Shown here piece by piece: positions 3 through 17,738 of a stretch of DNA of 21,026 bases. Both the position numbers and the translations under genes were made by a program. The stretch comes from Myxococcota bacterium (GTDB taxonomy: Bacteria > Myxococcota_A > Bradymonadia > UBA7976 > UBA1532), in contig JAYZEG010000012.1 in assembly GCA_036337435.1 (NCBI GenBank), positions 1 through 21,026 on the forward strand. Reading direction: 5' to 3'. The notes below the pieces were generated by a model. It was given only the letters and a program-made list of their open reading frames with translations. It did not search any database and was not told the DNA's origin. The first letter of the stretch is position 1; each line of letters begins with the position of its first letter.

Positions 3-3000
3 AAACAGGGGGCTAAGGCCCAGGCGGAAGCGAGAACAGCCGAAGCAACAGCACGCGCCGCTGAGGCGAAAGCACTTCGGGCTGCAGAAGTCGCTCGAGA
101 ACAGGCTGAGCGTGCCGCAAGTAAAGCCAGCGACGCTGAGATAAGAGCACTCAAGCTAGCACAAGAGGCGAAGGCGGCTCAGGAGAAAGCGAGTCAAAGC
201 GAAATCGCTGCACGCCAACAAGCGACGAAGAAAGCCGCAGAGCTACTCACACGAGCAGAAGCAGCCGAAACCATGGCTGTTGCGGCCCGTGCAGAGGCAA
301 AGGCGGCCGAACAGGCCGCCGATGCGAGAGCGAACGCAGCTCAAGCGCAGACCGCAGCAGCGGACGCACGAGCAGCCGCAGCAGAGGACCAAGCTCAGCA
401 ATCCAAGGCCAGAGCTGACCAGCTCTCCGTTGCCGCAGAGAAAGCTGCCGCAGCGGCAGAAGTCACTCAGTCTCAATTGACCAAAGCTCGACAAGCACTT
501 GCGGCTGCTGAAAAAAGAATCGCAACGGCTGAGGCGAAAGTCCGGAGTGCTGAGACAGCAACCGTAAGTGCACAACAGCAGCGTGAAGAAATTCGAGAGG
601 AGCTCAAACGTGCGCGTGCCCAGGTTCGAGACCTAAGCCGCTCGACAAACGACCGGATTAAGCAAGCGGAGACGCGAGCAAAGGCTGCCGAAGCACGACT
701 CAAGGCCGCTGAGGGGCAGGCACAGGACGCCATTGCACGCGCGGAAGCTCGAGCGCGACAGGCGGAAGTCAGTGCCCTCAAAGCAGCGGAATCATCACGA
801 GTTCGCGCTCAAAATGCAGAGAGCAGAGCGCAAAAAGCAGAGGCTGAAGCGGGACGGCTAGCTCGAGCCGCAGAGAAAGCCAATCAACGAGCGAGTAAAC
901 TGCGTAAAAATACGAAGGCTCTCGAAACTGCATCTCGAGCACAGGCTGCGGCCGAAGCCGCCCAGGCAACTGCGGAAGCGGCTCGCCAGCAGGCCAATGC
1001 TGCAACGCAGGCCGCCCAAGCCAAGATGGCTGCTGCGGAAGCTCGCGCCCAAGAAGCCATCGCTCGCGCCCAAGCCGCAGAAGCTGCGCTACAGGCATCC
1101 AAAGATGAGAGTAGTCAACGAGCGGCCGAAGCCGAACGCCTTGCCCAACGGGCCACTGCAGCTGAAGAAAGGGCGGACCAAGCCCAAGCAAATTTCGAAA
1201 GTGTGAGCACCAAGCTTGACCAAGCTCGAGTCCGGATACAAACAGCAGAAAGAGCGACGGTGCAAGCGCGTAAACAGCTCACAACAGCCCAAGTCGACTT
1301 GAAAAAAGCAAAGACCAACGCAGACAAAGCGAAGGCCCGAGCGCAGGTTGCGGAGATGCAGATTACGGTTGCACAGCGAGAATTGGAAACAGCAGCCGAG
1401 CGGGCACGGGCGGCAGAACAACGGGCTTCAGCGGCGCAAACAAGCGCAGACAATGCGCAACGTACTGCAGATACTCTTCGAAGCAGTGCCACCACCAAGG
1501 CCGAGAGAAATGCGGCCGTGCAAGCAGAGGCAGAGGCTCGTATTGCAGCTGCTGAGGCACGGACGCGAGCACTCGAAGCCGAACGCGCTCGGTTAGCACA
1601 GCAGTTAGGCAACCTGAAAACAGCGCGCGCAAAGGCGGAAGCAGAAAATACGCAGCTGGCGTCTGAGCGCGAGCAGCTCGACAGTATGCTGGCCAAAGCA
1701 AGAGCGGATAACGATTCCACACGAGCGAAATTGCTTCAGGCCGAACGGGAAGCCAAACTTGCAGAATCGAGGGCAAACGCTGCAGACATTGCACGCATCG
1801 AATCCGAGCAAGCCAGCTCGACGCTGGCACAAAACATCAAATCTCTTCAAGGACGAATCGCGGTCGCCGAACGGGCAAACAACGCCGATGAAGCAAACGC
1901 CCTGAAGACAAAACTCCGGCGCGCGGAGAGTCAAGTTGCGACTTTGCAGGGACAGCTGTCGGAAAAGCAAACCGCTCTCTTGGACGCTGAGCAGAAAGCA
2001 CGACGGAGCCGGGCAGAGCTTGAGCAGGTACGGGGACAAATGGCTGCCGTAACAGCACCGGAACCAATTTCACAGCCAAAGGCCAGCTCGCAACCGGAGC
2101 CCGTCACAATCGAGGAGCCTGTCGCGACCGTGCTGCCACCTCCACAGATGCGAACGCGCATCACCGACGTACAATTTAATAACCGTAAAGAGGCGTGTGA
2201 GATTACGATTTCATTCAAAGGTGATCCTGTCTATTCATTGAAAACTGAGGGCACCAAAACCCGAATCTTGGAATTCGCTGACGCATTGATCGATCCGGCC
2301 CTTGAGCGAAGTCTCGACACCAGTGAATTTGCTGCAGCCATCCAATTGGTCAGCAGTTTCCAAGCACCCGCGCCTGGAGACCGGGTGCGCATCGTCGTTA
2401 CCCTTGACACCAATGCGAAAGCAGAACTCGTACGGTCTGATAACACGCTACGATGGGTTTTCGAAAACCCTGTTCGAACCCTCGATACAATCGCCAATTT
2501 ACCACCGGCCCCATCCTGGAATCCGCCTGCAGCGGAGGTTCAGTACGATCGACCCAAAGCTGCGGTATTCACCGGCATGAGCCAAGCGATCGAGACCCGA
2601 TCGCTCGGTAAACCACGTCCCGCCCGCCGAAAGCGATATACGGGGCGAAAGATCAACATCGATATCAAAGACGGTGATATCCACAATATTCTCCGGCTGC
2701 TCGCCAAAGAAGGAAATGTCAACATCGTGACGAGTGATGAAGTGAAAGGCACCATCACCATGCACCTAAAATTGGTCCCCTGGGACCAAGCCCTCGAAAT
2801 CATTCTTCGGACAAAAGGTCTGGATATGGTTCGAGAGGGTGACATCATTCGAGTTGCGCCGGTTGAATCCATCGCAAAAGAGCGAGAATCCGAACTCAAA
2901 AAGCAGGAAGTGCAAGAAAAGCTGAAGCCCCTTGAGGTGAAGCTAATCACGGTCAACCATGCAACGGCCAGCGACCTGATGCCAAGAATCAAGAGCGTTC

Positions 3001-3929
3001 TATCGAAACGCGGCTCTTCAGAGTTTGATCAGCGAACAAATACGGTGATTTTGAAGGACGTCGATGACCATCTGGATGCGGCTGAAGATTTGATTCGTCG
3101 TCTCGACACCCAAACACCACAAGTCCTCATCGAGACCCGAATCGTCGAAGTAAACGAGGTCAACGTTCAACAGTTGGGTATTCAATGGGGTATTGATTCG
3201 ACCTGGAGCGCAGCAACAGGCAATCCAACAGGCCTTCGGTTTCCAAGTTCCATCGGCATTTCCGGTGGCGCTGATGATCAACAAGGGGGCACCGAGGGTG
3301 TCTCATCCAACCCGAACTTCGTCGTCAATTTGCCGGCGTCTGCTGGTCTTGGTTCTGGTGGTGCCTTGGGTATGACCTTCGGAAGCATCGACAGTACCTT
3401 CAATCTCAACGTGAGACTGACGGCACTTGAAAACCGGGGCTCGGTGAAGATCGTGAGCAGTCCGAAAATCACAACTTTGGACAATAAGAAAGCGCGAATT
3501 AGTCAGGGTGTTAGCATTCCAATTAGTCAGATCTCGGCCGCCGGGATTCAGACCGTGTTCTTCGATGCAGTGCTGAGTCTAGAAGCCACACCGCACGTCA
3601 CTCAGGACGGGAACATTTACCTTAAACTCAACGCGCAGAACAATACACCGGACTTCCAGAACGTGGGTGCTCGAGGGGACCCCACGATTCTTAAGAAAGA
3701 AGCGCAGACCGAATTACTTCTGAAGGACGGCGACACAACCGTGATCGGTGGCATCTACACAAGTAACGCTGGTTTTAATCGCTCAGAGGTGCCGTTTTTG
3801 GCTCGAATTCCGATCATTGGTGTCATGTTTCGCAATCATCAAGAGAGTGATCGTCGGAGTGAACTGTTGATCTTTGTGACACCTCGGATCGTGAATAGAG
3901 CAGCGTCAACCGTCAAAACGGCTCAGTGA
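3..3929 (+). CDS. pilQ: Type IV pilus secretin PilQ with long coiled-coil region (5'-partial)
   Basis: The frame of ORF 273..3929 is open back to base 3, so the true start lies upstream of the window. Domain order: Ala/Gln/Glu/Arg/Lys helical region to ~2040; Pro-rich linker; AMIN-like domain (RITDVQF...RIVVTLD); N0 (YTGRKINIDIKDGDIHNILRLLA, VPWDQAL); N3 (DQRTNTVILKD); secretin domain (QVLIETRIVE, SSPKITTLDNKKARISQG, VPFLARIPIIG, ELLIFVTPRIV). Lies upstream of aroK-aroB, a conserved pilQ context. Confidence 0.95.
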   Translation, partial: KQGAKAQAEARTAEATARAAEAKALRAAEVAREQAERAASKASDAEIRALKLAQEAKAAQEKASQSEIAARQQATKKAAELLTRAEAAETMAVAARAEAKAAEQAADARANAAQAQTAAADARAAAAEDQAQQSKARADQLSVAAEKAAAAAEVTQSQLTKARQALAAAEKRIATAEAKVRSAETATVSAQQQREEIREELKRARAQVRDLSRSTNDRIKQAETRAKAAEARLKAAEGQAQDAIARAEARARQAEVSALKAAESSRVRAQNAESRAQKAEAEAGRLARAAEKANQRASKLRKNTKALETASRAQAAAEAAQATAEAARQQANAATQAAQAKMAAAEARAQEAIARAQAAEAALQASKDESSQRAAEAERLAQRATAAEERADQAQANFESVSTKLDQARVRIQTAERATVQARKQLTTAQVDLKKAKTNADKAKARAQVAEMQITVAQRELETAAERARAAEQRASAAQTSADNAQRTADTLRSSATTKAERNAAVQAEAEARIAAAEARTRALEAERARLAQQLGNLKTARAKAEAENTQLASEREQLDSMLAKARADNDSTRAKLLQAEREAKLAESRANAADIARIESEQASSTLAQNIKSLQGRIAVAERANNADEANALKTKLRRAESQVATLQGQLSEKQTALLDAEQKARRSRAELEQVRGQMAAVTAPEPISQPKASSQPEPVTIEEPVATVLPPPQMRTRITDVQFNNRKEACEITISFKGDPVYSLKTEGTKTRILEFADALIDPALERSLDTSEFAAAIQLVSSFQAPAPGDRVRIVVTLDTNAKAELVRSDNTLRWVFENPVRTLDTIANLPPAPSWNPPAAEVQYDRPKAAVFTGMSQAIETRSLGKPRPARRKRYTGRKINIDIKDGDIHNILRLLAKEGNVNIVTSDEVKGTITMHLKLVPWDQALEIILRTKGLDMVREGDIIRVAPVESIAKERESELKKQEVQEKLKPLEVKLITVNHATASDLMPRIKSVLSKRGSSEFDQRTNTVILKDVDDHLDAAEDLIRRLDTQTPQVLIETRIVEVNEVNVQQLGIQWGIDSTWSAATGNPTGLRFPSSIGISGGADDQQGGTEGVSSNPNFVVNLPASAGLGSGGALGMTFGSIDSTFNLNVRLTALENRGSVKIVSSPKITTLDNKKARISQGVSIPISQISAAGIQTVFFDAVLSLEATPHVTQDGNIYLKLNAQNNTPDFQNVGARGDPTILKKEAQTELLLKDGDTTVIGGIYTSNAGFNRSEVPFLARIPIIGVMFRNHQESDRRSELLIFVTPRIVNRAASTVKTAQ

Positions 3930-4465
3930 TCGAGGTCAGTGACCAACGACCGATCTTCCTATGGGGAATGATGGGTACTGGAAAATCAAGCGTCGGCCGC
4001 ATTCTCGCTGAACGTTTGGGACGACAATTTATTGACCTCGACGAGGCGATCGCGACTCGCGAAAACAGTGATATTGAAGCCCTTTTTATTCAGCGTGGAG
4101 AAAGTGTGTTTCGACAGCTAGAGAAAGAAGCCTTCACCCAGCAATTGCAGGATGGCAAGAACAAGGTCATCGCCTTGGGTGGTGGCACCCTACTCGACGA
4201 TAAACTCCGTGAGGAAGCACGCAAAACAGGGCCTGTGATCTGTCTCGGTGCGAGTATCGACACACTCCTTGCTCGGCTCGAAGGCTCCTCTGGGCGTCCG
4301 CTGCTCGACAAAAACAATCTGCGCTTGTCATTGGTGGAACTTCAAACCGTTCGCTCGGCAAGCTATGCAGATTCGGATGCACACATCGATACGGATCAGC
4401 AGAGTATTGAGGCTGTGGTGGCCGGATTGTGTGACATGCTTGTGGGTGCGGAGGGAAGTCAATGA
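3926..4465 (+). CDS. aroK: Shikimate kinase
   Basis: Walker A GMMGTGKSSVG, FIDLD, GESVFRQLE, ALGGG and RPLL motifs. GTG start overlaps the pilQ stop (GTGA). Confidence 0.95.
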   Translation: MIEVSDQRPIFLWGMMGTGKSSVGRILAERLGRQFIDLDEAIATRENSDIEALFIQRGESVFRQLEKEAFTQQLQDGKNKVIALGGGTLLDDKLREEARKTGPVICLGASIDTLLARLEGSSGRPLLDKNNLRLSLVELQTVRSASYADSDAHIDTDQQSIEAVVAGLCDMLVGAEGSQ

Positions 4466-5565
4466 AGATCGCTGTGGAGCTCGGGTCTCGACGGTATCCG
4501 ATCTATTTTCGATCCGGTGGACACCACGAGTTGGTTGAAAGAACGATTGCTGATGCCGCAAGCGGTCGTGTGATCATCGTCTCTGATAAAAATGTCGCAC
4601 CACTGTACGCAACGGAATTCACAAAATCTCTGACCGAGACCGGTTTGAATGCGAAGCTGGTCACTATTCCCGTCGGCGAACATACGAAGACCCTCGACAC
4701 AGTCAAACAGGTTTACGAAACGGCAGTCTCTCATGGTGTAGACAGGCAAACCCACATCGTCGCTTATGGCGGTGGTGTCGTTGGCGATATAGCCGGCTTT
4801 GTTGCCTCGACGCTCTTGCGTGGCCTACCTTTTGCTCAAATTCCGACCACAGTGCTCGCCCAAGTGGACAGCAGCGTTGGTGGGAAGGTCGGTGTAAACT
4901 TTGCCGGTGCAAAGAATATGATCGGATCGTTCTACCAACCCAAATGGGTATTCATTGACACAAAACATTTGGATACACTGCCCGTACAGCACCGACGTTC
5001 TGGTTTGGCTGAGGCGGTGAAACATGGTTTCTTAGGGGGCGAAAAGCTGCTCACACAGGTCACTGATAAAATCGGCCCGATTCTGATGGGCGATGGACAA
5101 GCCCTGTTTGATATCTTGCCAGACGTTGTCCGTTTGAAAGCAGAGATCGTACGGGAAGATGAGCTGGAAGTCGGACGTCGCGTGGTTTTGAATTTGGGCC
5201 ACACGCTGGGCCATGCATTTGAGACCGACGTTACAAATGGTTCGCTCAATCACGGAGATGCTGTCGCACTCGGCCTCGGTTTTTGCTTGGCAATGAGTAC
5301 AGAGCAACTTGGTTTGTCCGAGCGCGAACGGGCATTAGGTGACGCAGCTCTGGCGGCTCTGGGTGGCCCGACGAACTGGTCAGAACGCATTAATGACGGG
5401 GTATTTGAGCGGGTTTTACTCGATAAAAAGAACAGGGGCGACACGGTCCGCATTATTGGATTGAGAAAACTAGCGGAACCGGTCGTACTGGACTACAAAC
5501 AGAAAGAGTTTAGAGACATAGTTTGTCGACTGGCAGAAGCCGATCGAGAAAGGAAGTTACGATGA
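4462..5565 (+). CDS. aroB: 3-dehydroquinate synthase
   Basis: GGGVVGDIAGF, PTTVLAQVDSSVGGKVG, KNMIGSFYQP, LNLGHTLGHA and HGDAV motifs. ATGA overlap with aroK. Confidence 0.96.
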   Translation: MKIAVELGSRRYPIYFRSGGHHELVERTIADAASGRVIIVSDKNVAPLYATEFTKSLTETGLNAKLVTIPVGEHTKTLDTVKQVYETAVSHGVDRQTHIVAYGGGVVGDIAGFVASTLLRGLPFAQIPTTVLAQVDSSVGGKVGVNFAGAKNMIGSFYQPKWVFIDTKHLDTLPVQHRRSGLAEAVKHGFLGGEKLLTQVTDKIGPILMGDGQALFDILPDVVRLKAEIVREDELEVGRRVVLNLGHTLGHAFETDVTNGSLNHGDAVALGLGFCLAMSTEQLGLSERERALGDAALAALGGPTNWSERINDGVFERVLLDKKNRGDTVRIIGLRKLAEPVVLDYKQKEFRDIVCRLAEADRERKLR

Positions 5566-6407
5566 AATCGCAATATACACACGAATCAGGTCGACTGTGT
5601 TTCCTCATTGTGTTGTCACTGGTCATGGGCGTGCTGATGGGCTGCCAAGATCGTGAGGTTTCCATGAGCATCGTAAGCGTAAAGCCATTCGACATAGAAA
5701 CCTGTGAAGTGATCGAGGACGATAATGTCTTTCAAGTAAGCGGAGTCGTCGACTTGGCTATGCGCCAGACTTACCGAGCGAATCTATTGCTTGAAAACAA
5801 CCTTGTCGACGTCCCGAATGCGAAAGGCTTGCGGCCCGCTGACACACGCGTGAGTCTCAATGCAATCGCACTGAGTTCAGCCGTAATCGAATACTCGACC
5901 TTAGACCAACTGTCGACTGGGATACCCTCCCGTCGCATTGTTCCGCTGAGTGGAACGATCCCGGAAGAAACCGCACTCACTTTGGCTAACTTTGAGCTCT
6001 TCTCGCAGGATGTTTTGCAACAAGTCCGAAACGCTGAAGAATTTTTCTCCGTCAACAATGGCGAAGTCGTTCCATCGAGAACAGCGGTCACGATTCTCGC
6101 CCGCGTCCGCATCAAAGGCAGAACATTGGACGGCCGAGACGCAGAATCTAACGAGTTTCTCTTTCCAGTCGAAGTCTGCAATGGATGTCGCGTCATCTAT
6201 CCATCCGAAATGATTGTTCAACGAGGCGGTCAACTCGCCTGCCCTGCCCCGATGGTCAATGCCGAAGAAGACAACTCGACGGCGACTAACGAGCTTTGCG
6301 AGGCCTTACTGGGCAGTGATGAGTCGTTTGTAGATTGCCAAACCTGTCAGGGCCTCGCCGTTGATTCATTCGCACGTCAACTGTGTCAACCGCCGCGGAT
6401 CCCATAA
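5562..6407 (+). CDS. Putative Cys-rich lipoprotein of unknown function
   Basis: Preferred ATG at 5562 overlaps the aroB stop and has AGGAAG upstream. Hydrophobic signal ends in the lipobox LMGC. Eight further Cys, including CNGC and CQTC. Confidence 0.75.
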   Translation: MKSQYTHESGRLCFLIVLSLVMGVLMGCQDREVSMSIVSVKPFDIETCEVIEDDNVFQVSGVVDLAMRQTYRANLLLENNLVDVPNAKGLRPADTRVSLNAIALSSAVIEYSTLDQLSTGIPSRRIVPLSGTIPEETALTLANFELFSQDVLQQVRNAEEFFSVNNGEVVPSRTAVTILARVRIKGRTLDGRDAESNEFLFPVEVCNGCRVIYPSEMIVQRGGQLACPAPMVNAEEDNSTATNELCEALLGSDESFVDCQTCQGLAVDSFARQLCQPPRIP

Positions 6408-6479
6408 ACGCCCCGCTGGGGCCAATACCCAAGACTAATTCAAAGACCAGGAAAGACTGTTCCGGAGTTTGATGCCTGT

Positions 6480-6836
6480 ATGCAGATGGAGGAACATTTA
6501 AATCGTCTGGTCGACCATATCGATGGGGCTCTTGGCGCAGCTTTACTCAATGCAGACGGTGTCGTCGTTCACGCTGTGGAACCAGGAAAAAATCTGCGTC
6601 TGACACACGGGTTATCTGAGTTTGGCCTCGTCGCGAAGCAATTGACCTCTCTGGATGAACTGTCGGATCTTGGCGAACCGCTCTCATTTAAATTCGATAG
6701 CTCCGATAGAACGCTTTTGCTCAGGCCTCTGGGCCCCAAATACTTTGTGGCCCTATGGATTAAAGCGACCCATGATGCGCTTCGCGCACAATTTCAACTG
6801 CGCATTGTCAGCGCGGACCTGATGGCACTAGTTTGA
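6480..6836 (+). CDS. Roadblock/LC7 domain protein, MglC-like
   Basis: HLNRLVDHIDGALGAALLNADG...LRPLGPKYFVALW...FQLRI fits the roadblock fold and resembles M. xanthus MglC as I recall it. Same position between pilQ and efp. Confidence 0.8.
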   Translation: MQMEEHLNRLVDHIDGALGAALLNADGVVVHAVEPGKNLRLTHGLSEFGLVAKQLTSLDELSDLGEPLSFKFDSSDRTLLLRPLGPKYFVALWIKATHDALRAQFQLRIVSADLMALV

Positions 6837-6846
6837 GGAAAATACG

Positions 6847-7281
6847 ATGAAGTTTCTCATTGTAAACGGTCCAAATCTAAATCTGCTCGGCTCCCGGGAA
6901 CCAGAGGTCTATGGCTCTGAAAGCCTAGATGAAATCATGAACAAAACCGCCGCGTTTGCGACTGACAACGGGGTGGAGATTGACTCCGTTCAAAGTCATC
7001 ATGAGGGTGTTCTGATCGAGGCCATTCAAAAGGCCGCGGGGCGCTTTGATGGTCTAATTATCAACCCGGCCGGATACGGACATTCAAGCGTCGCCATCAG
7101 AGACGCCCTCATCGCTGTTGGACTGCCTGCAGTTGAGGTACACTTGTCAAATCTCGCCCAGCGAGAAGAATTTAGGCATAGGACGTTGACAGCTGACGTC
7201 TGTGTAGGTCAGATATGTGGCTTTGGGGGTCATGGCTACCCGTTGGCCATTATGGCCTTGAAGAAACACATCGCCGGTTAG
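6847..7281 (+). CDS. aroQ: Type II 3-dehydroquinate dehydratase
   Basis: NGPNLNLLGSREPEVYG, IINPAG, VAIRDA, EVHLSN and REEFRH motifs. GAGGA RBS. Confidence 0.97.
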   Translation: MKFLIVNGPNLNLLGSREPEVYGSESLDEIMNKTAAFATDNGVEIDSVQSHHEGVLIEAIQKAAGRFDGLIINPAGYGHSSVAIRDALIAVGLPAVEVHLSNLAQREEFRHRTLTADVCVGQICGFGGHGYPLAIMALKKHIAG

Positions 7282-7289
7282 GAAAAAGC

Positions 7290-7850
7290 ATGTATCAAAC
7301 AAACGAATTCAGAAAAAACCTAAAAATCGAATACGAGGGGAGCCTCTGGTCCATTGTTGATTGCCAATTTGTTAAGCCGGGGAAAGGCGTTGCCTTCGTT
7401 AAGACGAAACTCAAGAACCTGATTGACGGTCGCGGAATCCAGGTCAATTTTCGTTCCGGAGAAAAGGTCGGCAAACCAGATGTAAACGATGTAAAAATGC
7501 AGGTTCTCTATAATGATGGGTCAGCTTGGCACTTCATGGACAACAAAACCTACGATCAGATCGAAGTCCGAGCTGAAGAGCTCGGTGATACAGCAAATTA
7601 TCTGAAGGAAGAGCTTGAAGTGAGCGTTTTGCTGTACAACGGACGCCCGATTGATGTGGAACTGCCCAACTTCATTGAAGCCAAGATCATCGAATGCGAG
7701 CCGGGTGTACGTGGCGACACGGTTCAAGGTGGCAGTAAGCCGGCGACCATTGAAACAGGTGCAATTGTTCAGGTTCCATTTTTTGTTGAGGAAGGCGAAG
7801 TCATCAAGGTTGACACGCGCACAGGCGAGTATTCGTCACGCGTCAAGTAA
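7290..7850 (+). CDS. efp: Elongation factor P
   Basis: The start is ATG 7290 (AGGA upstream), not 7215. FVKPGKGVAFVKTKLKN, FMDNKTYDQ, PGVRGDT, KPATIETG and IKVDTRTGEY motifs. Confidence 0.97.
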   Translation: MYQTNEFRKNLKIEYEGSLWSIVDCQFVKPGKGVAFVKTKLKNLIDGRGIQVNFRSGEKVGKPDVNDVKMQVLYNDGSAWHFMDNKTYDQIEVRAEELGDTANYLKEELEVSVLLYNGRPIDVELPNFIEAKIIECEPGVRGDTVQGGSKPATIETGAIVQVPFFVEEGEVIKVDTRTGEYSSRVK

Positions 7851-7968: not shown

Positions 7969-9993
7969 GTGGCTCTCGACAAGAACAAAGCCATCGCCTC
8001 GGCGCAAAAATACCTCCAACGAGGACAGATCGATAAGGCGATCAAAGAATATGAGAGTATCGTTGACGCTGACCCAGGCGACGTACGGGTCTGGTTGAAA
8101 ATCGGTGATCTACACAGCCGAAACGGTAAAGTGGCCCTCGCGGTCAACACGTACAAGAAAGTCGCAGAAACCTACAGAGGCAAGGGATTTTTTCTCAAAG
8201 CTGTCGCCGTATACAAAAAGGTGCTGGATGTCGATCCGACCCTGACCGAGGTGTATCGTACGCTCGGCGACGTTTATATAAAGCTTAATTTGCCGTCTGA
8301 AGCATTGGCCCAATATCGACTCGTGGTCGGCAGTTATGAACGGGACGGCCGTTCAGCCGATGCAATGATTTTGCTCGAACACATGGTTGAACTGGTGCCG
8401 GAAGATGAGTCTAACCATCTTCGCTTGGCCGAGGCACATGCTAAAAACTGTAATGACCAACCTGCCATCGAACACTTTGAATTTGTCCTGGGTCGAATGC
8501 GTTCCCAAAACCGGCACGCTGAGTTCATCAAGGTTGCTGAGCGACTGCTCTATTTGTATCCCGAACAGATTGCGAGCGGTCGACACCTTGCACAGGCTTA
8601 CTTGGCCACATCAAATTCAAAGCGTGCTCTGGCTTGGCTCCAGAGACTTTTTAAACTGGATCCCACAGACACTCGAACTCTCGCATTGCTCGCGGAAACG
8701 TTTCGAGAAATTGGCCGTAATGAAAAAGCAGCTGCGGTTTATCGAGAGTTAGTCCGAATCTATTCACAAAATGGAGAGACCAATAAGCAGCAACAAGCAT
8801 TGCAACGCCTTGTGGATGTGGCACCCAACGACAGCGCGGCCCGTGATGCCCTTGCACATATCTCCAGCGAAAACGAGGGATATACGGCAGGGCAATCGAG
8901 CATATTAGGTACAGACGCAAATTTTGAACCGGTCTTGTCTACGGAGGAGCGGGTTAATTTATGCTTGGCCGACGTTGACCTTCTCTTGAAGTATCAGCTA
9001 CCGGACCATGCACGCCAGCGCATTGATGTGGCGATTGGACTCGATTCGAAGAACCCCGCTGTTTATTTGAAATTAAAAGATCTCTGTCTACTGCGAAACG
9101 AGAGTGATGCGGCTGCTGAGGCTTTGGTGAAAGCCGCTCAACTGTCCAGTGAGGCAGACTCGAGCCGAGCCGAATCATATCTACGTGAGGCACTCAGCCT
9201 CGCTCCTGAGCATGCTCTGGCGTCTGAGCTACTCTCTGGCATCGGGCAGGTAGGAGGCCCCTCAGCTGACTTAGACAACTCCGAACTGACAAGTTCAGCC
9301 GCTCCGCCGATGGACGCTGCAGAGCCCTCGGAGGACTTGTCGATGGATTTCGATATTGACCTGAACCTGGATGACCTCAGCCTAGATGACTTTTCAGACC
9401 TATCGGACGACTCCAGTGAATTCGAACTGTCTCTGGATGGCTTCGAGCTTGAAGAATTGGGCTTCGAAGTACAAAGCGACGGGCTCGCAGAAGCCCCCGA
9501 TGACGATGAATTTGCGGATCTTCTGGCCGATGATGGAGCTGAAGACATGCTCCTAGATGACTCGTCGATGCATGGGCCCAATGCGGGTGCAATCATAACA
9601 CCACCGATGCCTAATGAGAGGACGACCGACGATGGGCCCAAATCCTCACAGACCTTGATTCCAAATTATGAACCCGATGTCTTATCGGAAACAGCCACCC
9701 AAACGGCTGATTTTGGCGACGGATTTGGTGATGGTCTACTGGATATAACGATGGACCATGCGATACCGGATATCGATCTCAAACAGGATGATGCAACATC
9801 AGAGCATGATGTACTCGACCTAAGCGAGTTTGACGACCTTGATGACATCAACCAGGCCGCGCTCGATGTACTGGCTGACTCTGATTTGAGTGGTGATTTC
9901 GGTGATCTATTGGTCGACACCCCAAACACCGAACTGCCAACTGCTCAACCGATTAGAACAGGTGATGTACCCAAGTCTGGCGACGATCATTAG
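7969..9993 (+). CDS. TPR-repeat protein, SgmX-like, with long acidic C-terminal tail
   Basis: Tandem TPR patterns over the first ~425 aa (KAIKEYESIVDADPGD, KAVAVYKKVLDVDPT, LFKLDPTD). N-terminus DKNKAIASAQK resembles M. xanthus SgmX as recalled, and the gene lies downstream of pilQ/mglC/efp. The last ~245 aa are D/E/L/S-rich. GTG start with AGGA upstream. Confidence 0.8.
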   Translation: MALDKNKAIASAQKYLQRGQIDKAIKEYESIVDADPGDVRVWLKIGDLHSRNGKVALAVNTYKKVAETYRGKGFFLKAVAVYKKVLDVDPTLTEVYRTLGDVYIKLNLPSEALAQYRLVVGSYERDGRSADAMILLEHMVELVPEDESNHLRLAEAHAKNCNDQPAIEHFEFVLGRMRSQNRHAEFIKVAERLLYLYPEQIASGRHLAQAYLATSNSKRALAWLQRLFKLDPTDTRTLALLAETFREIGRNEKAAAVYRELVRIYSQNGETNKQQQALQRLVDVAPNDSAARDALAHISSENEGYTAGQSSILGTDANFEPVLSTEERVNLCLADVDLLLKYQLPDHARQRIDVAIGLDSKNPAVYLKLKDLCLLRNESDAAAEALVKAAQLSSEADSSRAESYLREALSLAPEHALASELLSGIGQVGGPSADLDNSELTSSAAPPMDAAEPSEDLSMDFDIDLNLDDLSLDDFSDLSDDSSEFELSLDGFELEELGFEVQSDGLAEAPDDDEFADLLADDGAEDMLLDDSSMHGPNAGAIITPPMPNERTTDDGPKSSQTLIPNYEPDVLSETATQTADFGDGFGDGLLDITMDHAIPDIDLKQDDATSEHDVLDLSEFDDLDDINQAALDVLADSDLSGDFGDLLVDTPNTELPTAQPIRTGDVPKSGDDH

Positions 9994-10050: not shown

Positions 10051-10122
<72 letters not shown>

Positions 10123-10124
10123 CA

Positions 10125-10156: not shown

Positions 10157-10355
10157 ATCCCCGCCCAGGTCTATCCTCTTATGAAACGACCGGACTACCA
10201 GATAAAAGACCGGCGAGAATCATAATTCCAATCCATGCGACAATTAATGCTGACGAAGTAACTCTGCCCATCGGATACACCTTTAGCGGGTCGATGTATC
10301 CCATGACGCCTCATCATCGCGTCATCTCACAGAGTAGAGTGATAAAACCATCTAA

Positions 10356-10793
10356 CTAGCCTGTATAAATGGCACTATTCTTATCATTTTCCCGAACCTC
10401 GAGGGAGACGAGCCAGACCCGATCCTGGGTCACATTTTTGACCCAGCTGTCTAGCCAGTTGAAGACGAATTCAGCCGTCCCTTCCATTCCAACATCCGCA
10501 AAAGTGACAAGCTTACAAGCTCCTTTTTCTGCGAGCTGCCGAAACTCGGGCAGTAAAGGGTCATCGTCATCAAGTAGAAGTGTGTGGTCAAAGTGGTCAT
10601 CGAGCCATGCCTTGACTGGCTTCAAAGCACCAAAGTCCATTACAAAGCCGTTCTCGGTTCGCTGTTCACACGCAAACCAAGCGATGAACTCTCGGCTGTA
10701 GCCGTGAATGTGCGCGCAATGACCATCATGACGCCAACGTCGGTGTGAACACGGATAGTTTCGAAACGTCTTCGAGGAACGAAAAGTAGCCAA
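10356..10793 (-). CDS. queD: 6-carboxytetrahydropterin synthase (QueD/PTPS family), H-G-Y variant
   Basis: SHR...CAHIHGY, GFVMDFGALK, FDHTLL, GMEGTAE and VRENDKNSA motifs. Adjacent to queC and queE. TTG start. Confidence 0.88.
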   Translation of the reverse strand: MATFRSSKTFRNYPCSHRRWRHDGHCAHIHGYSREFIAWFACEQRTENGFVMDFGALKPVKAWLDDHFDHTLLLDDDDPLLPEFRQLAEKGACKLVTFADVGMEGTAEFVFNWLDSWVKNVTQDRVWLVSLEVRENDKNSAIYTG

Positions 10794-10837
10794 TTAAACA
10801 ATCCCATTCGCTGCGTAAAGCATTTGATGTACCCAGT

Positions 10838-10878
10838 GTTGACTAAACAGTCAACTCGATGTTGACAACTGGGACAAA
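10838..10878. promoter_or_regulatory. Candidate operator and overlapping divergent promoters of queD and queC
   Basis: Perfect palindrome GTTGACT-AAAC-AGTCAAC (10838-10855) and a degenerate copy GTTGACA-ACTG-GGACAAA (10861-10878). Half-sites contain TTGACT on both strands and TTGACA (10862-10867). Confidence 0.6.
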
Positions 10879-10924
10879 AATAATCAGTATTCCCTCCGCA
10901 AAAGCGTCTAAAAGGAACAGTGGC

Positions 10925-11614
10925 ATGCCGAAAGCTTTGATTTTGTCGAGTGGTGGACTTGATTCGACCACTTGTTTAGCGATGGCCATCGACCAGGGGT
11001 ATGACCCGATTACCCTGACCTTTGATTATGGCCAGCGCCATCGAATCGAATTGGCAGCAGCCAAAGACGTCGCAGACTACTATGGTGTAAAACAGCACTT
11101 TATTGCCGATGTGGGCCTGTTTCGTGACATAGGTCAATCAGCACTGACCGATGATATCGATGTCCCAAAAAATTTAAGCGTAGATGACCTCGCTGACGAC
11201 ATACCCGTAACCTATGTTCCGGCTCGTAATTTGGTTTTCCTGTCGATGGCAACCGGTGTCGCAGAAACACAGGGGGCCAGCGACATTTTTATCGGGGTCA
11301 ATGCCCTCGACTACAGTGGGTATCCCGATTGCCGGCCGGAATTTATAACCGCTTTTAGCGCAGCAGCGAATCTCGCAACGAAATCAGGTACGAATGGGAT
11401 TTCGGTTAAGATACAAACACCGCTCATTAACCTGACCAAGGCCGAGATTATTAAATCAGGTCATGCATTAGGTGCGCCTTACCACCTCACTCATAGTTGC
11501 TATGCGCCCACGACCGATAATCTGTCATGTGGTCAGTGTGATTCGTGTCTTCTCCGTCTCAAGGGATTTGCCGACGCATCCCTAACGGACCCCATTTCAT
11601 ACGCTGGCGTTTGA
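10925..11614 (+). CDS. queC: 7-cyano-7-deazaguanine synthase
   Basis: Preferred start ATG 10925 (AGGAA upstream). SGGLDS, FDYGQRH, TYVPARN, GYPDCRPEF and the Zn site SCY...CGQCDSC. Confidence 0.97.
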   Translation: MPKALILSSGGLDSTTCLAMAIDQGYDPITLTFDYGQRHRIELAAAKDVADYYGVKQHFIADVGLFRDIGQSALTDDIDVPKNLSVDDLADDIPVTYVPARNLVFLSMATGVAETQGASDIFIGVNALDYSGYPDCRPEFITAFSAAANLATKSGTNGISVKIQTPLINLTKAEIIKSGHALGAPYHLTHSCYAPTTDNLSCGQCDSCLLRLKGFADASLTDPISYAGV

Positions 11615-11615
11615 C

Positions 11616-12260
11616 ATGGGTTACAAAGTAAAAGAGCTGTTCTACACCCTACAGGGCGAAGGCGCACAGGCGGGTCGAGCCGCTATATTTTGTCGTTTTA
11701 CGGGGTGCAATCTCTGGACAGGTCGCGAAGCGGACCGCGCAATGGCAGTCTGCAAATTTTGTGATACAGATTTTTTGGGTACGGACGGTGTTGGGGGCGG
11801 GCGGTTTAAGTCGAGTTCCATGCTTGCAGCTCAAATAGAGTTCGAGTGGACGAACAACACGAAGCCCGGTACCGGGAAACCCTTTGTTGTCTTCACTGGC
11901 GGAGAACCCGCTCTTCAACTTGATGAAGAGCTCATCCAAGAATGCCAAAGACGCGGTTTCGAGGTTGCCATCGAAACCAATGGCACGCTTCCAATTCCCT
12001 CCTCCATTGATTGGATTTGTGTCAGTCCAAAGGCGGCTGAACCATTGGCGATCACCACTGGCCATGAACTAAAACTGGTATACCCACAAGTGGAAATCGA
12101 GCCAAGCCAATTTGAAAATCTCGATTTCGACCACTTTTATATCCAGCCCATGGATGGGCCAAATGCAAAGGAGAATACGGTTAACGCCGTCGCATTTTGT
12201 CAACGGAACCCGACCTGGAAGCTCTCCATTCAAATGCATAAGCTCGTAGGAATTCCATGA
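11616..12260 (+). CDS. queE: 7-carboxy-7-deazaguanine synthase (radical SAM, CX14CX2C type)
   Basis: ELFYTLQGEG, C-NLWTGREADRAMAV-C-KF-C-DTDF, TGGEPALQ, IETNGT, VSPK, and C-terminal QMHK. Confidence 0.96.
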   Translation: MGYKVKELFYTLQGEGAQAGRAAIFCRFTGCNLWTGREADRAMAVCKFCDTDFLGTDGVGGGRFKSSSMLAAQIEFEWTNNTKPGTGKPFVVFTGGEPALQLDEELIQECQRRGFEVAIETNGTLPIPSSIDWICVSPKAAEPLAITTGHELKLVYPQVEIEPSQFENLDFDHFYIQPMDGPNAKENTVNAVAFCQRNPTWKLSIQMHKLVGIP

Positions 12261-13399
12261 AACACGATAGAATTGAATCGGCCGTGTCGTTACCAGACCA
12301 TGCCAGCGAATATGATGGACGCCAACTCCCCATCGATCGGGTTGGAATCCGAGGACTTAAATACCCCATCACAGTTCTCGACAAAGACCATAAGACGCAA
12401 CACACCGTCGCAGAGCTTGGCTTGTTCGTAGGACTACCTGCCCAGTTTAAGGGCACACACATGAGCCGTTTTATCGAGGTTCTGAACACGGTTAGGGGTG
12501 AGTTAACTATTCGCAATCTGCCTATGGTTTTAAGCCAAATACAGGAGCGCCTCAATTCAGAGGATGCCTTCCTGGAAGCAAGTTTTCCGTACTTTATTGA
12601 GAAGGAGGCTCCAGTCAGTAAGGCGAAGTCTCTGATGGAGTATTCATGCTACTTCTCGGCATCGGCACGGGGTGCACGGACGTCATTTAAGCTGGGTGTG
12701 AGAGTGCCTGTCAAAAGTCTTTGTCCGTGTTCAAAGGCCATCAGCGAACGCGGTGCCCATAATCAGAGAAGCATCGTTGACGTACAAGTCGCGTCAAGCG
12801 GATTTGTCTGGATCGAGGATGTGGTCCATGCCGTGGAGTCCTGTGCGTCATCACCTGTCTACGCGCTTCTAAAAAGGTCCGATGAGAAATTTGTGACCGA
12901 GGAGGCATATGACAATCCAAAGTTTGTCGAAGATTTGGTACGGGACGTTGTCATTTCGATTCGCTCACTCGACTCAATCACATATGTGAAGGTCAGTGCT
13001 GAAAACTTTGAATCTATCCACAACCATGAAGCATATGCGGAAATTGAATGGTCTGCTGGTGACAATCAGCTTGAACCTGATGCCTCGCAAATCATGTCAA
13101 AAACGAAACAATCTCCGTTTTCTTTCGGGCGTTGGCTGAAGCAACAGCGCAAAGAGCGACATTTGAGCCAATCTGACCTCGCACTCCATCTCGGCGTAAC
13201 CGCTTCGTTTCTGTCGAGGATCGAGAGTGATGAAAGACAGCCATCTGCAGAGCATTTAGAGCTGATGGCCACACTACTTGGGTTGCCGGCAGAGACCATG
13301 ATGCTGAGAGCTGGTGTGGTTCCCGATCATATTCTGCAGCGCGTACAAGCCCACCCTGAACGATTGAAACAACTCTATTGGGGAAATTCCATCTCGTAA
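12257..13399 (+). CDS. folE2: GTP cyclohydrolase IB (FolE2) fused to a C-terminal XRE/Cro-C1 HTH domain
   Basis: aa 1-265: IDRVGI, KGTHMSRF, SLCPCSKAIS, GAHNQRS, KRSDEKFVTE, NPKFVEDLVR, ESIHNHEA. aa ~288-365: FGRWLKQQRKERHLSQSDLALHLGVTASFLSRIESDERQPS...LATLLG-like HTH. One continuous frame. Confidence 0.93.
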   Translation: MKHDRIESAVSLPDHASEYDGRQLPIDRVGIRGLKYPITVLDKDHKTQHTVAELGLFVGLPAQFKGTHMSRFIEVLNTVRGELTIRNLPMVLSQIQERLNSEDAFLEASFPYFIEKEAPVSKAKSLMEYSCYFSASARGARTSFKLGVRVPVKSLCPCSKAISERGAHNQRSIVDVQVASSGFVWIEDVVHAVESCASSPVYALLKRSDEKFVTEEAYDNPKFVEDLVRDVVISIRSLDSITYVKVSAENFESIHNHEAYAEIEWSAGDNQLEPDASQIMSKTKQSPFSFGRWLKQQRKERHLSQSDLALHLGVTASFLSRIESDERQPSAEHLELMATLLGLPAETMMLRAGVVPDHILQRVQAHPERLKQLYWGNSIS

Positions 13400-13518
13400 G
13401 ACCAATAGCGACAACATGTTTCCATGACAATTAGCTGACAGCCATCCATTGGCATTTTGACGTTCTCATGTGAGCGAAAGGGGTCCTACCATGCGCTTTT
13501 GAGGCTGCACAGACCGAT

Positions 13519-13534
13519 TGGCATAGCACTTGCT
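13519..13534 (+). promoter_or_regulatory. Sigma54 (-24/-12) promoter
   Basis: TGGCAT-AGCAC-TTGCT with exact GG-N10-GC spacing. Intergenic, 52 nt before ATG 13587. Confidence 0.8.
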
Positions 13535-13586
13535 GACTCATGACGACCAGGGACCGAAAAAGTCCGATTGAGAACCTGGAGTCGAT

Positions 13587-14510
13587 ATGAGACGTCACAG
13601 TATGAGAACCGCCGAGTCGCTACCTCCTGCGCTGCCGCCATTACTGCAGATGTGTAGAGAGGCACGATCGATCAATGAGCTACTCGAAACGATTCAACGA
13701 CCACTTTTCGACACATTGAATGTCGAGGCAATCAGCCTAGCAATCGTTGGGGAACCGACCATTTACGTGACCTCGATCAAACCCTTGTCGACGACATTCA
13801 AAGCGCAGATCATGGGCCATAAGACTCGATGTCTGCCAAGCTTGTCGAGCGATCAAAACACCAACCAATCAAGTCAGAATATTCAGCAGCTTGGTGTTGT
13901 GATTAACCCTAAACCAATGGGGGATTTTGTCCGTATCGCTTGGACCGGAGCCTTAGAGAGCCAAGGTCATCTGCTGGCTGTCGTGACATTCTACAGTGAT
14001 GAAGCGCGAACATTATCGGATAAACAAGTCAATCTTTTGAGGCAAATTCGTGCCTGTATGGCCGATGTCCTACTTAGGGTCGGCCAAACTGGAAATGACG
14101 CACTTGACGAGCATAAAACCGAAGAATCATCAGCTGACCTTATGCTCATCAAGCTGGTCGATGATAGCCGAGTCATTGACCCGGCTGACCGCATGACACA
14201 AGAGTGGGTTCGCGCGGTATTGGTCCGAATGCTAACAGAGCAAATTGGACCGCAAGTCCAAACATGGACCATGGGTCCAAACATGATCGCGGTGCTAACC
14301 GATGACCTTTCGGGTGGACAGCGGCCACTTTGGATCGAACGGCTAGCGACGTTGGAGTCCCTTATCAATCAACGCCTGGGCCTCGAATTTAGATTTAAAG
14401 CGAACTTTGCAGATCCCATCGATCACGTCCAGACCATCGAGTCGCCTGGGATTCTCATTCCAAAGCCGCCAAAAACGTCGGTTGTGGAACGAGATGCGAA
14501 GGCCATCTGA
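13587..14510 (+). CDS. Hypothetical protein; possible GAF-like N-terminal and degenerate GGDEF-like C-terminal domains
   Basis: GGAG RBS. ALESQGHLLAVVTFYSDEARTLSDKQVNLLRQI resembles a GAF C-terminus. ADLMLIKL...TWTMGPNMIAVL follows GGDEF-like spacing but has no catalytic motif. Domain calls are tentative. Confidence 0.6.
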   Translation: MRRHSMRTAESLPPALPPLLQMCREARSINELLETIQRPLFDTLNVEAISLAIVGEPTIYVTSIKPLSTTFKAQIMGHKTRCLPSLSSDQNTNQSSQNIQQLGVVINPKPMGDFVRIAWTGALESQGHLLAVVTFYSDEARTLSDKQVNLLRQIRACMADVLLRVGQTGNDALDEHKTEESSADLMLIKLVDDSRVIDPADRMTQEWVRAVLVRMLTEQIGPQVQTWTMGPNMIAVLTDDLSGGQRPLWIERLATLESLINQRLGLEFRFKANFADPIDHVQTIESPGILIPKPPKTSVVERDAKAI

Positions 14511-16262: not shown

Positions 16263-17738
16263 TCAGTCTAAATCGGTCGATAATAGACTCGGTGGAAGAC
16301 CGTATTGCTTCCACTTTCGTGCGGCAGTCTGCCTCGGGATGCCAAGCAGCCGTGCTACATCCTGCAATCGGGCATGTCCGGGGTGGCGTGCTTTTGCAGC
16401 CCGCTCAGCAGCCAGCCGAAAATAGGTCGCCTCAACCTGAGACATGACCCTGGGCAACGCGTCATCGGTCAATGGGAGTGAGTCGAGAGCTGAATCAAAG
16501 TTGAGCAGCCAAGATGATTCACGGGACGACGGCTCATGCAAACGCTGACCCCGACGCAAGAAGCGTTGGCATTGGTCTTCAATGGCGGTCAGGTCAAGCG
16601 GACCCGAGACCTGGACGTTAATCAGCGAACGTATGAGGGCTTCCAATTCTCTAATGTTGCCCGACCAATCATAATCCTGGAAGGATAACCAGGCGCATCG
16701 GGCGATGCGGTCTACTCTCACGCTGTCTGCGATCCAACCCATGAATGATTTCTGCTCGTCACCGAGCACATCAGCTGGCACACCATCTGGTCTAAATGCA
16801 TCTTGTCGAGAACTGTATTGATGTAACGACACCGAAGGTAGACCGCAATATCCACGCGCGACATTTTGGTAAACAAGGCCAAATATCCTAAGCCACTGAT
16901 CAAGGTTGTCCACCAGTGCGCTCAGGTTCGGTATCTCAATGAGCCCATCGCGACATAGATTTTCGAACAGCGCTCTCACAACAGATGTCTGTTCATGTGT
17001 CTCACGTTCGAATTCGCCTTGTACACCGGTAATTAGATGTAGGTTACTCGGCTGGTTCTGTTGGGTCATGTAACCCGAGGTCTCAGTGTTCAACGCGGCT
17101 AAGAAGCGAGGTAGCAGATTATCCGGCATTTGGAGTGCTTCATCTAGGAACAGGACCGATGCATTGCAGTCGGACAAACAACCAGCAACTTGCTCGGTGG
17201 TACCATGCCTCCGTCCCCCGAATATATCGGTGGCGATCTCATCATGTCCGGTGGACAATCGAACCGAACGACTGACGCCTTTCGGATCGCCCATCTGGTT
17301 CGCTCGCACGAGGCACTCAACTGTGAGCTGTCGAATGCGATCACCAATGCCTGCTCGACCAGAACCACCATGACCCATCAGCATGATCCGCCGTCGTGTC
17401 GAACGTGGACGATACAATTCAATTCGGAGATTCTGGCCGAACACTGCATTACACACGTCCGCCGTAAGACCTGTCCCGTAGATTTTCTCCCAGTAGGTTT
17501 GGTGCGTGAATGCCACAAATCTGGCCAATCCATCAAAGACCGAGTTCCACCTTTCCGATAAACCGGCTGGAATAGCGTATTGACGAACGAGACTGTCGCC
17601 ATAGCGACTCAATTCGCTCTCGATCAAATCATGTTCTTCCGATAAGAAACGTGGCTCTCCTGCCAATGGTCGGATGAGACCTTCACGGCGTAAATGGGAT
17701 ACGATTTGACTTGGTTTCGTTGATTTATAGTCGCTCAT
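16263..17738 (-). CDS. Degenerate sigma54-activator-like AAA+ protein with Fis-type HTH
   Basis: Walker A-like IMLMGHGGSGR, Walker B VLFLDEA, sensor II YDWSGNIRELEALI, C-terminal LQDVARLLGIPRQTAARKWKQYGL. No GAFTGA motif. Confidence 0.85.
   Translation of the reverse strand: MSDYKSTKPSQIVSHLRREGLIRPLAGEPRFLSEEHDLIESELSRYGDSLVRQYAIPAGLSERWNSVFDGLARFVAFTHQTYWEKIYGTGLTADVCNAVFGQNLRIELYRPRSTRRRIMLMGHGGSGRAGIGDRIRQLTVECLVRANQMGDPKGVSRSVRLSTGHDEIATDIFGGRRHGTTEQVAGCLSDCNASVLFLDEALQMPDNLLPRFLAALNTETSGYMTQQNQPSNLHLITGVQGEFERETHEQTSVVRALFENLCRDGLIEIPNLSALVDNLDQWLRIFGLVYQNVARGYCGLPSVSLHQYSSRQDAFRPDGVPADVLGDEQKSFMGWIADSVRVDRIARCAWLSFQDYDWSGNIRELEALIRSLINVQVSGPLDLTAIEDQCQRFLRRGQRLHEPSSRESSWLLNFDSALDSLPLTDDALPRVMSQVEATYFRLAAERAAKARHPGHARLQDVARLLGIPRQTAARKWKQYGLPPSLLSTDLD

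Follow-up and report, generated by a model that had tools for sequence, protein, structure and literature searches.

The fused folE2 gene and its que locus

The subject of this study is a 21,026-nucleotide (nt) stretch of DNA from a Myxococcota bacterium (GenBank assembly GCA_036337435.1, contig JAYZEG010000012.1, positions 1 to 21,026), hereafter called the window, in which a gene for a GTP cyclohydrolase of the FolE2 family runs in frame into a DNA-binding helix-turn-helix (HTH) of the XRE family. This gene, folE2::HTH, closes an operon with queC and queE, from which a queD-like gene diverges. Its product, FolE2-HTH, is read here as a conserved and apparently undescribed variant of FolE2, probably a bifunctional enzyme-repressor, which is accompanied by a well-supported candidate operator pair. 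The genes concerned are the following.

10356..10793, minus strand: queD-like gene for a 6-carboxytetrahydropterin synthase (PTPS), start codon TTG at 10793, divergent from the operon (PF01242, E 5e-23)
10925..11614, plus strand: queC, 7-cyano-7-deazaguanine synthase, with the probable start codon ATG at 10925 (PF06508, E 7e-76; TIGR00364, 214 bits against a cut-off of 150)
11616..12260, plus strand: queE, 7-carboxy-7-deazaguanine synthase of the Cx14CxxC type (TIGR04508, 338 bits against a cut-off of 240)
12257..13399, plus strand: folE2::HTH, an open reading frame (ORF) of 380 codons without internal stop or frame change, stop codon 13397-13399

The family profiles bear out the gene order queD / queC-queE-folE2 that a preliminary description of this DNA had given. 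The queD-like gene reaches E 3e-11 with the QueD model TIGR03367, which is under its cut-off, and occupies the same divergent position in three of three relatives of the same genus, while the start of folE2 overlaps the stop of queE by 4 nt (ATGA). The longest queC ORF opens at ATG 10859, between the two candidate operators O1 and O2 described below; its true start is probably ATG 10925, because an AAGGAA motif precedes this codon at 10912-10917 and the alignment with two of the three relatives of the genus does not begin before residue 23.

According to the Pfam search, GCHY-1 (PF02649) covers residues 12-261 of FolE2-HTH (E 1e-88, 297.6 bits against a cut-off of 25) and HTH_3 (PF01381) covers residues 294-345 (E 1e-13, 51.1 bits against 23), and the NCBIfam FolE2 equivalog NF010200 is matched with 272.1 bits against a cut-off of 215. 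The AlphaFold model of the 380-residue protein, computed with an alignment of 120 relatives, has a mean predicted local distance difference test score (pLDDT) of 90.8, and its sole weak internal stretch (pLDDT below 50) is formed by residues 272-282 in the linker. The earlier statement that a full FolE2 is followed in frame by a linker, an XRE HTH and a short helical tail was thus confirmed by Pfam, NCBIfam and AlphaFold, with a linker of about 23 residues, and the protein is divided as follows.

12290..13054, plus strand: catalytic domain of FolE2 / GTP cyclohydrolase IB (GCYH-IB), residues 12-266 (family profiles, structure match, catalytic residues)
13055..13123, plus strand: variable linker, predicted to be disordered, residues 267-289 (pLDDT below 50 at 272-282; alignment of relatives)
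13124..13309, plus strand: XRE/Cro-C1 five-helix HTH, residues 290-351, with the recognition helix at 316-323 (PF01381, Foldseek)
13310..13399, plus strand: LRAGVVP motif and two C-terminal helices, residues 352-380, a predicted dimerisation element (conservation, dimer model)

The catalytic half

FolE2 converts GTP to dihydroneopterin triphosphate. The enzyme half of FolE2-HTH is approximately 48-51% identical to the solved GTP cyclohydrolases IB 2R5R, 8G6C and 3D2O (E 1e-64 to 1e-79), and its predicted fold, a bimodular T-fold monomer, superposes on 8g8v, 8g6c, 3d2o and 2r5r with template modelling scores of 0.91-0.93 and a root-mean-square deviation (rmsd) of 2.0-2.5 Å. In the Burkholderia pseudomallei enzyme, the metal ligands are Cys154, His166 and Glu208 and the catalytic residues are Cys156, Arg205, Glu250 and His253 (PMC11573665). 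Their equivalents in FolE2-HTH are C156, H168 and E210 as metal ligands and C158, R207, E252 and H255 as catalytic residues, all of which are present, in accordance with the intact family motifs noted before, and they are retained in 119-120 of 120 fused relatives. Sequence cut-offs, predicted fold and residues all place the enzyme half in the GCYH-IB family.

One fused relative departs from this pattern. Protein P0232 of the representative library (317 residues, 35% identical) carries in its FolE2 half a 17-residue deletion that takes out the CPC...H ligands, a deletion of the KR-DE segment, and replacements of the THMSRF and ENFESIHNH motifs, and its HTH tail and LRAGVVP motif are intact; its sequence suggests a pseudo-enzyme with a regulatory role.

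Linker, HTH and predicted dimerisation element

The linker varies from 18 to 35 residues (median 24) among the 120 fused relatives and has no sequence conservation. The internal methionine pointed out in the preliminary description does lie at residue 280 (ATG 13094-13096), and its interpretation there as the relic start of a formerly separate regulator was not upheld: in the 120 fused relatives, the corresponding column holds mainly P (38), R (15) and A (14), and a relative of 86% identity has V.

The HTH and tail are modelled with a pLDDT of 94.5, with HTH helices at 290-300, 305-312, 316-323, 331-341 and 345-351, which are followed by helices at 357-365 and 367-378. Foldseek aligns the HTH with SinR, C.BclI, C.AhdI, C.EcoT38IS, DdrO, ImmR and P22 c2 at an rmsd of 1.3-2.3 Å over about 60 residues. 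F290, R298, Q305 and E323 are invariant in the HTH of the 120 relatives, and R351, A352, G353 and P356 of the tail are conserved in 90-100% of them. By its profile match and modelled fold, the tail belongs to the XRE family.

Two copies of the tail (residues 283-380) were modelled together with the alignment and alongside three controls. The predicted homodimer reached an ipSAE score of 0.66 against 0.00 for the best control, through an interface formed by residues 346-374 and 287-290, with a partner pLDDT of 85 and agreement between runs in at least 89% of contacts. In calibration, 20 of 30 proteins solved as pairs attained the mark used here, as did one of 23 solved as single chains, and the model supports dimerisation of the HTH tail as a prediction.

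Residue 318 of the recognition helix also varies in step with the base at position 4 of the half-site in the operator motif introduced below, which may be a co-variation of protein and DNA. In the 32 fused loci examined for that motif, H occurs with right half-sites GACAA, F with GTCAA, and L or V mostly with GGCAA. This pattern is suggestive; the groups are largely clades, there are exceptions (L230, L235, L236), and it is not used as evidence here.

Conservation and origin of the fusion

All of the 120 best database relatives, taken as clusters at 90% identity, are fused proteins that combine PF02649 with PF01381 and/or PF13560, with lengths of 361-404 residues and identities of 54-99%. The source databases label them only as 'GTP cyclohydrolase I FolE2', and more than 100 such proteins are public. 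Among 401 sampled genomes of the phylum, 69 possess FolE2 (counted at E of at most 1e-30), and in 31 of these the match extends through the HTH tail, one genome having two copies; three further fused genomes were found among near relatives. A word-based search with tail residues 266-380 returned three close relatives and was uninformative on distribution, with too few exact words shared. Comparison of a tail profile with 1.84 billion representatives gave 136,154 matches at E of at most 0.001, which were dominated by multi-HTH repeat proteins and permitted no family count. Scans with a profile of the fused alignment recovered at least 79 unfused loci and one fused locus from metagenome contigs and three fused loci among 79 from genome contigs, and the unfused loci were reused as controls.

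These data bear on the explanation that the fusion is an assembly or frameshift artefact of two genes. It could appeal to the contigs of four public runs (two DNA and two RNA libraries), which cover the region piecemeal and of which none bridges 12975-13177, so that read support at the junction is no evidence either way. Against it stand a 99%-identical fused protein on a separate contig together with 119 further fused clusters, the occurrence of the fusion in 31 sampled genomes, the absence of any stop or frame change from the ORF, and the lack of a relative with a separate HTH gene after folE2. The artefact explanation is already refuted by these conservation data, and the fusion is real and conserved.

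The preliminary description had envisaged a once-separate regulator gene, and for this no trace was found. No homologue of the HTH tail (E of at most 0.01) adjoins any of the 28 unfused folE2 genes of the phylum, and no genuine stand-alone homologue of the tail occurs among the best 150 representatives, where the small free-standing matches are fragments of fused genes. Relatives that encode the two parts as separate genes, which had been named beforehand as the finding that would speak against the fusion, were likewise not seen.

A maximum-likelihood tree was calculated from the FolE2 domain alone with 101 rows, comprising 35 fused and 28 unfused sequences of the phylum and 38 unfused sequences from outside it (L029-L104, of which every second locus was taken). 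A branch with an SH-aLRT (approximate likelihood-ratio test) support of 100 sets apart a group that contains all 35 fused rows and two unfused ones (from genomes G009 and G019). The fused or unfused label requires three changes on this tree, the root of which is not established, and this distribution fits a single origin of the fusion with later loss of the tail. The two unfused genes inside the fused clade are L017 (G009) and L024 (G019); in G009, queC abuts its upstream gene and no motif of at least nine matching positions lies near, which fits a loss of tail and operator together.

Two further observations concern individual loci. L021 (G036) and a locus of G039 contain an open frame of 436 codons around an unfused FolE2, the match lying at 172-421; the 170 codons ahead of the match overlap a queE-like ORF and may be no more than open frame. 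In L217, L223, L224 and L242, the fused gene diverges from a FabH-like (ACP_syn_III_C) gene with AMP-binding or alpha/beta-hydrolase genes beyond it; two of the four have phage-baseplate- or sheath-like genes downstream, and no que gene is nearby.

Candidate operators and promoters

The queD-queC intergenic region, which is conserved within the genus, holds two 16-bp palindromes whose starts are 23 bp apart, and they overlap the hexamers of two proposed promoters.

10839..10854, strandless: candidate operator O1, TTGACTAAACAGTCAA, 10 of 10 positions of TTG[AC]C-N6-G[GT]CAA, overlapping the -35 hexamer and spacer of the proposed queD promoter
10862..10877, strandless: candidate operator O2, TTGACAACTGGGACAA, 9 of 10 positions, its left half being the TTGACA -35-like hexamer of the proposed queC promoter
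10826..10854, minus strand: proposed queD promoter, recognised by eye, with -35 TTGACT (10854..10849), a 17-nt spacer and -10 TACATC (10831..10826)
10862..10890, plus strand: putative, weak queC-queE-folE2 promoter, with -35 TTGACA (10862-10867), a 17-nt spacer and -10 CAGTAT (10885-10890)

Positions and spacing of the queD hexamers are kept in three genus relatives, and the queC -10 position reads CAGTAT, CAATAT and CAGGAT in genus relatives.

For the distribution of the motif, promoter windows were set at -200 to +70 relative to the point where the transcription unit begins, which is queC, queE or folE2 itself. From 35 fused loci of the phylum, L005, L228 and L233 were dropped, as less than 200 nt upstream or a contig end was available, which left 32 loci with 322,716 nt, of which the promoter windows make up 8,640 nt (2.7%). 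All ten perfect matches in these loci lie inside promoter windows, as do 31 of the 69 matches at nine or more positions (3.59 per kb, against 0.12 per kb outside) and 11 of the 12 tandem pairs at 23 bp with at least eight positions in both sites. The loci with such a pair inside the promoter window are our own, L013, L014, L025, L219, L221, L229, L232, L234, L236 and L238. In contrast, the controls, 163 unfused folE2 loci (1.33 Mb) with 154 promoter windows, yielded one perfect site, ten sites of at least nine positions (0.24 per kb) and one pair.

Because the degenerate template had first been noticed by eye in the same promoter windows, the comparison was repeated without circularity with a pattern taken from our own promoter window alone, TTGAC-N6-GTCAA, at eight or more of ten positions. 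Of the 28 fused loci outside the genus, 21 carry this pattern in the promoter window, with a density of 3.84 per kb in the promoter windows and 0.32 per kb elsewhere in the loci, and it occurs in 18 of 174 promoter windows of unfused folE2 genes (0.38 per kb). Across the whole genome of 4.38 Mb, perfect single sites number 48, which is the background level, and none of them is near queF (contig C1), queA-tgt (C56) or folE (C24), whereas O1 with O2 constitutes the only tandem pair of ten and nine matching positions at the six spacings tried (22-24 and 33-35 bp). The motif tracks the fused gene across unrelated neighbourhoods, including que operons, a divergent PTPS gene and divergent FabH-like genes, and many fused genes that stand alone still have sites in their own promoters. 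The region 10794-10924, for which tandem operators were suggested earlier, does hold a palindrome pair of a kind that recurs at fused-gene promoters of other lineages, and its recognition by the HTH we infer: the simplest reading of the distribution is that the fused HTH would bind the O1/O2-type motif.

Several points weigh against this reading and the repression proposed from it. With the degenerate template, eight of the 32 fused loci have no site of at least nine positions anywhere in the locus, and, as stated, that template was first spotted by eye in the windows on which it was tried. The fused loci are kin, so that the motif counts are not independent trials and overstate their independence. 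The score of the tail dimer model may stem partly from its likeness to solved XRE dimers. Both proposed -10 hexamers match the consensus at only three of six positions, a scan of 10300-13700 for consensus promoters of the sigma-70 type found none, and the promoter assignment is weak. A contig from an RNA library (metatranscriptome), 10865-11127, begins upstream of the predicted queC transcription start site, maybe owing to DNA carry-over; a start near 10865 would still leave O1 and O2 over the core promoter. Finally, TTGAC/TTGCC, the left half of the motif, is similar to a -35 box, so that some of the motif signal comes from promoters as such; that this accounts for all of it is made unlikely by the unfused controls.

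This resemblance leads to the explanation that the palindromes are back-to-back -35 boxes or the sites of another regulator, and that the HTH binds elsewhere or makes protein contacts only. TTGACA is indeed the -35 consensus of sigma-70, and the 48 perfect single sites are scattered over the genome. The right half-site at a fixed N6 and the tandem layout of 23 bp, however, are no promoter features and are not enriched at the 154-174 promoter windows of unfused folE2 genes; together with the association of the motif with the fused gene in differing neighbourhoods and the strong conservation of the HTH residues, this makes the explanation unlikely.

Binding to O1 and O2 might also activate the que promoters, or the protein might act on them as a dual regulator that a ligand switches. 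O1 sits where activators typically bind, a short way upstream of the proposed queC -35, and poor -10 hexamers are usual at activator-dependent promoters; yet O2 takes in TTGACA together with 10 nt of the spacer, O1 lies over the proposed queD -35, and the nearest structural relatives (SinR, C-proteins, DdrO, ImmR and P22 c2) are mainly repressors. Activation is accordingly considered quite improbable, and binding that represses remains the preferred reading of the two sites.

Genomic surroundings and the probable destination of preQ0

The remainder of the window is occupied by housekeeping genes, including those for a PilQ-type secretin, aroK, aroB, aroQ, efp, a TPR protein and a DsbD-like protein. 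The region 273-7850 begins with the secretin gene (1218 residues; domains AMIN, STN, Secretin_N and Secretin), after which come aroK, aroB, two ORFs that match no family, aroQ, and efp, the ORF start of which overlaps the end of aroQ. Directly past folE2::HTH, at 13587-14510, lies a 307-residue ORF without a Pfam or NCBIfam match, and a 491-residue ORF at 16263-17738 on the minus strand, with a weak Sigma54_activat match (E 1e-3, below cut-off) and an AAA lid, is perhaps a degenerate enhancer-binding protein. The only Rfam match in the window is a tRNA gene.

10051-10123: tRNA-Gly(CCC), between the TPR-protein gene (7969-9993) and queD (Rfam)

The Rfam search of the window found no riboswitch at gathering score, whether of the preQ1 types (I, II or III) or any other, and in 10300-11100 there was no match even at E of at most 1, in agreement with the earlier remark that no preQ1 riboswitch is visible here.

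Elsewhere, the genome (4.38 Mb, 87% complete) encodes a canonical FolE, one tRNA-guanine transglycosylase (TGT) adjoining queA, and queF, and a match to PF01227 (FolE) is likewise present in 24 of the 31 sampled genomes in which the fusion occurs. To judge from these gene contents, the preQ0 produced by the operon most likely feeds tRNA queuosine, with FolE2-HTH as a second GTP cyclohydrolase I dedicated to the operon.

A different destination underlies the explanation that the HTH tethers the enzyme to DNA in order to feed a 7-deazaguanine DNA modification of the Dpd type, rather than to regulate. A Dpd-like neighbourhood of DNA-modification genes is seen at L216:2854-6184, the second fused locus of genome G262, where queC-queE-folE2::HTH is followed by genes for a DndB-like protein (PF14072, E 5e-15) and a weakly TGT-like protein (27.3 bits, the cut-off being 26.3); G262 also has a stand-alone fused copy. 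In our genome, however, the sole TGT match adjoins queA and makes up a tRNA-queuosine set with queF, the family search of the window genes found no DNA-modification, Dpd-like or restriction-modification (R-M) genes, and most fused loci have no such neighbours. FolE2, moreover, uses free GTP, four steps ahead of any enzyme acting on DNA (PMC5699537). The tethering explanation is very improbable.

Proposed mechanism and significance

The preferred reading, to which we assign a probability of roughly 0.6, is that FolE2-HTH is a bifunctional enzyme-repressor that shuts off its own operon and queD through O1 and O2. Its N-terminal GTP cyclohydrolase IB would supply dihydroneopterin triphosphate to the QueD-QueE-QueC route to preQ0, and the XRE HTHs would pair through the LRAGVVP motif and the C-terminal helices. 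FolE2 is a homotetramer in solved structures, with active sites at the subunit interfaces (PMC5699537, PMC11573665). As a tetramer, FolE2-HTH would have four HTHs, tethered by flexible linkers of about 23 residues, and these would form two dimers for O1 and O2, the palindromes 23 bp apart. The earlier picture of an oligomer presenting several HTHs to tandem operators is to this extent coherent, as it agrees with the homotetramer, the predicted tail dimer and the two palindromes; the part of it that concerns binding of the palindromes by the HTHs is inferred. The two proposed divergent promoters each have their -35-like hexamer under one of the palindromes, and occupation of both sites would therefore shut down queD and queC-queE-folE2 jointly. 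Such negative autoregulation of preQ0 synthesis would stand in for the usual preQ1 riboswitch. The sites that stand-alone fused genes carry in their own promoters point to autoregulation as the common function of the fused genes.

A further step, that FolE2-HTH is a ligand-sensing trigger enzyme, is a tentative and rather doubtful proposal. preQ0 and preQ1 are guanine look-alikes, and the T-fold active site, which binds purines and pterins, might read GTP or preQ0/preQ1 and signal through the tetramer to the two HTH dimers. If this were true, FolE2-HTH would be the first protein sensor, as distinct from a riboswitch, of queuosine-precursor status, and P0232 would be a pure sensor-regulator derived from an enzyme.

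The synthesis of queuosine and 7-deazaguanine precursors is a textbook case of riboswitch control, and a conserved control by protein, housed in the enzyme that opens the pathway, would solve the same task a second time and independently. A T-fold enzyme would thereby join the few enzymes that also serve as transcription factors, and the tetramer with its tandem operators would provide a model for turning the oligomeric state of an enzyme into operator cooperativity. P0232, apparently dead as a catalyst, would mark a path from enzyme to pure regulator. For annotation, the more than 100 proteins that carry only the FolE2 label are probably regulators too.

Comparison with known systems

Literature searches, in which subscription journals were not covered, found no description of a FolE2-HTH protein, in agreement with the preliminary description, which knew of none. 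In residues 12-266, FolE2-HTH resembles the GCYH-IB enzymes of N. europaea (2R5R), B. pseudomallei (8G6C/8G8V) and N. gonorrhoeae (3D2O) in sequence, fold and metal and catalytic residues. All solved and described FolE2 proteins are single-domain, whereas FolE2-HTH is longer by 114 residues, made up of the linker, the HTH and the predicted dimerisation element, and falls into a separate clade of the FolE2 tree.

Ligand control of DNA binding is established for the trigger enzymes BirA, PutA, NadR and RbkR. These share with FolE2-HTH the union of a pathway enzyme and a DNA-binding domain in a single polypeptide and candidate operators at genes of the pathway. With a complete enzyme joined to an HTH, and candidate operators at pathway genes that it would occupy, the present protein fits the enzyme-repressor pattern in its architecture. 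FolE2-HTH differs in being a T-fold GCYH-IB with an XRE HTH in the preQ0/queuosine pathway. The archaeal RbkR, by comparison, is a riboflavin kinase fused to an HTH (PMC5397151).

Some of the best matches of the HTH, by sequence as well as by structure, are controller proteins (C-proteins) of R-M systems, namely C.BclI (2B5A), C.AhdI (1Y7Y) and C.EcoT38IS (2EF8). C-proteins act as dimers on two adjacent operators over their own -35 box, and by analogy FolE2-HTH is proposed to place dimers on two adjacent palindromes that overlap the -35 hexamers and to control its own promoter. Unlike the C-proteins, which are free-standing proteins of about 80 residues in R-M operons, its HTH is the tail of an enzyme with extra dimerisation helices, and no R-M genes occur in the window. 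FolE2-HTH is thus neither a C-protein nor one of BirA, PutA, NadR and RbkR.

The preQ1 riboswitches, finally, are the usual control of queCDEF. They govern the same genes, presumably with the same feedback logic on the supply of preQ0/preQ1, but they are RNA-based and none was detected by Rfam here, where a system of a protein and its operators is proposed instead.

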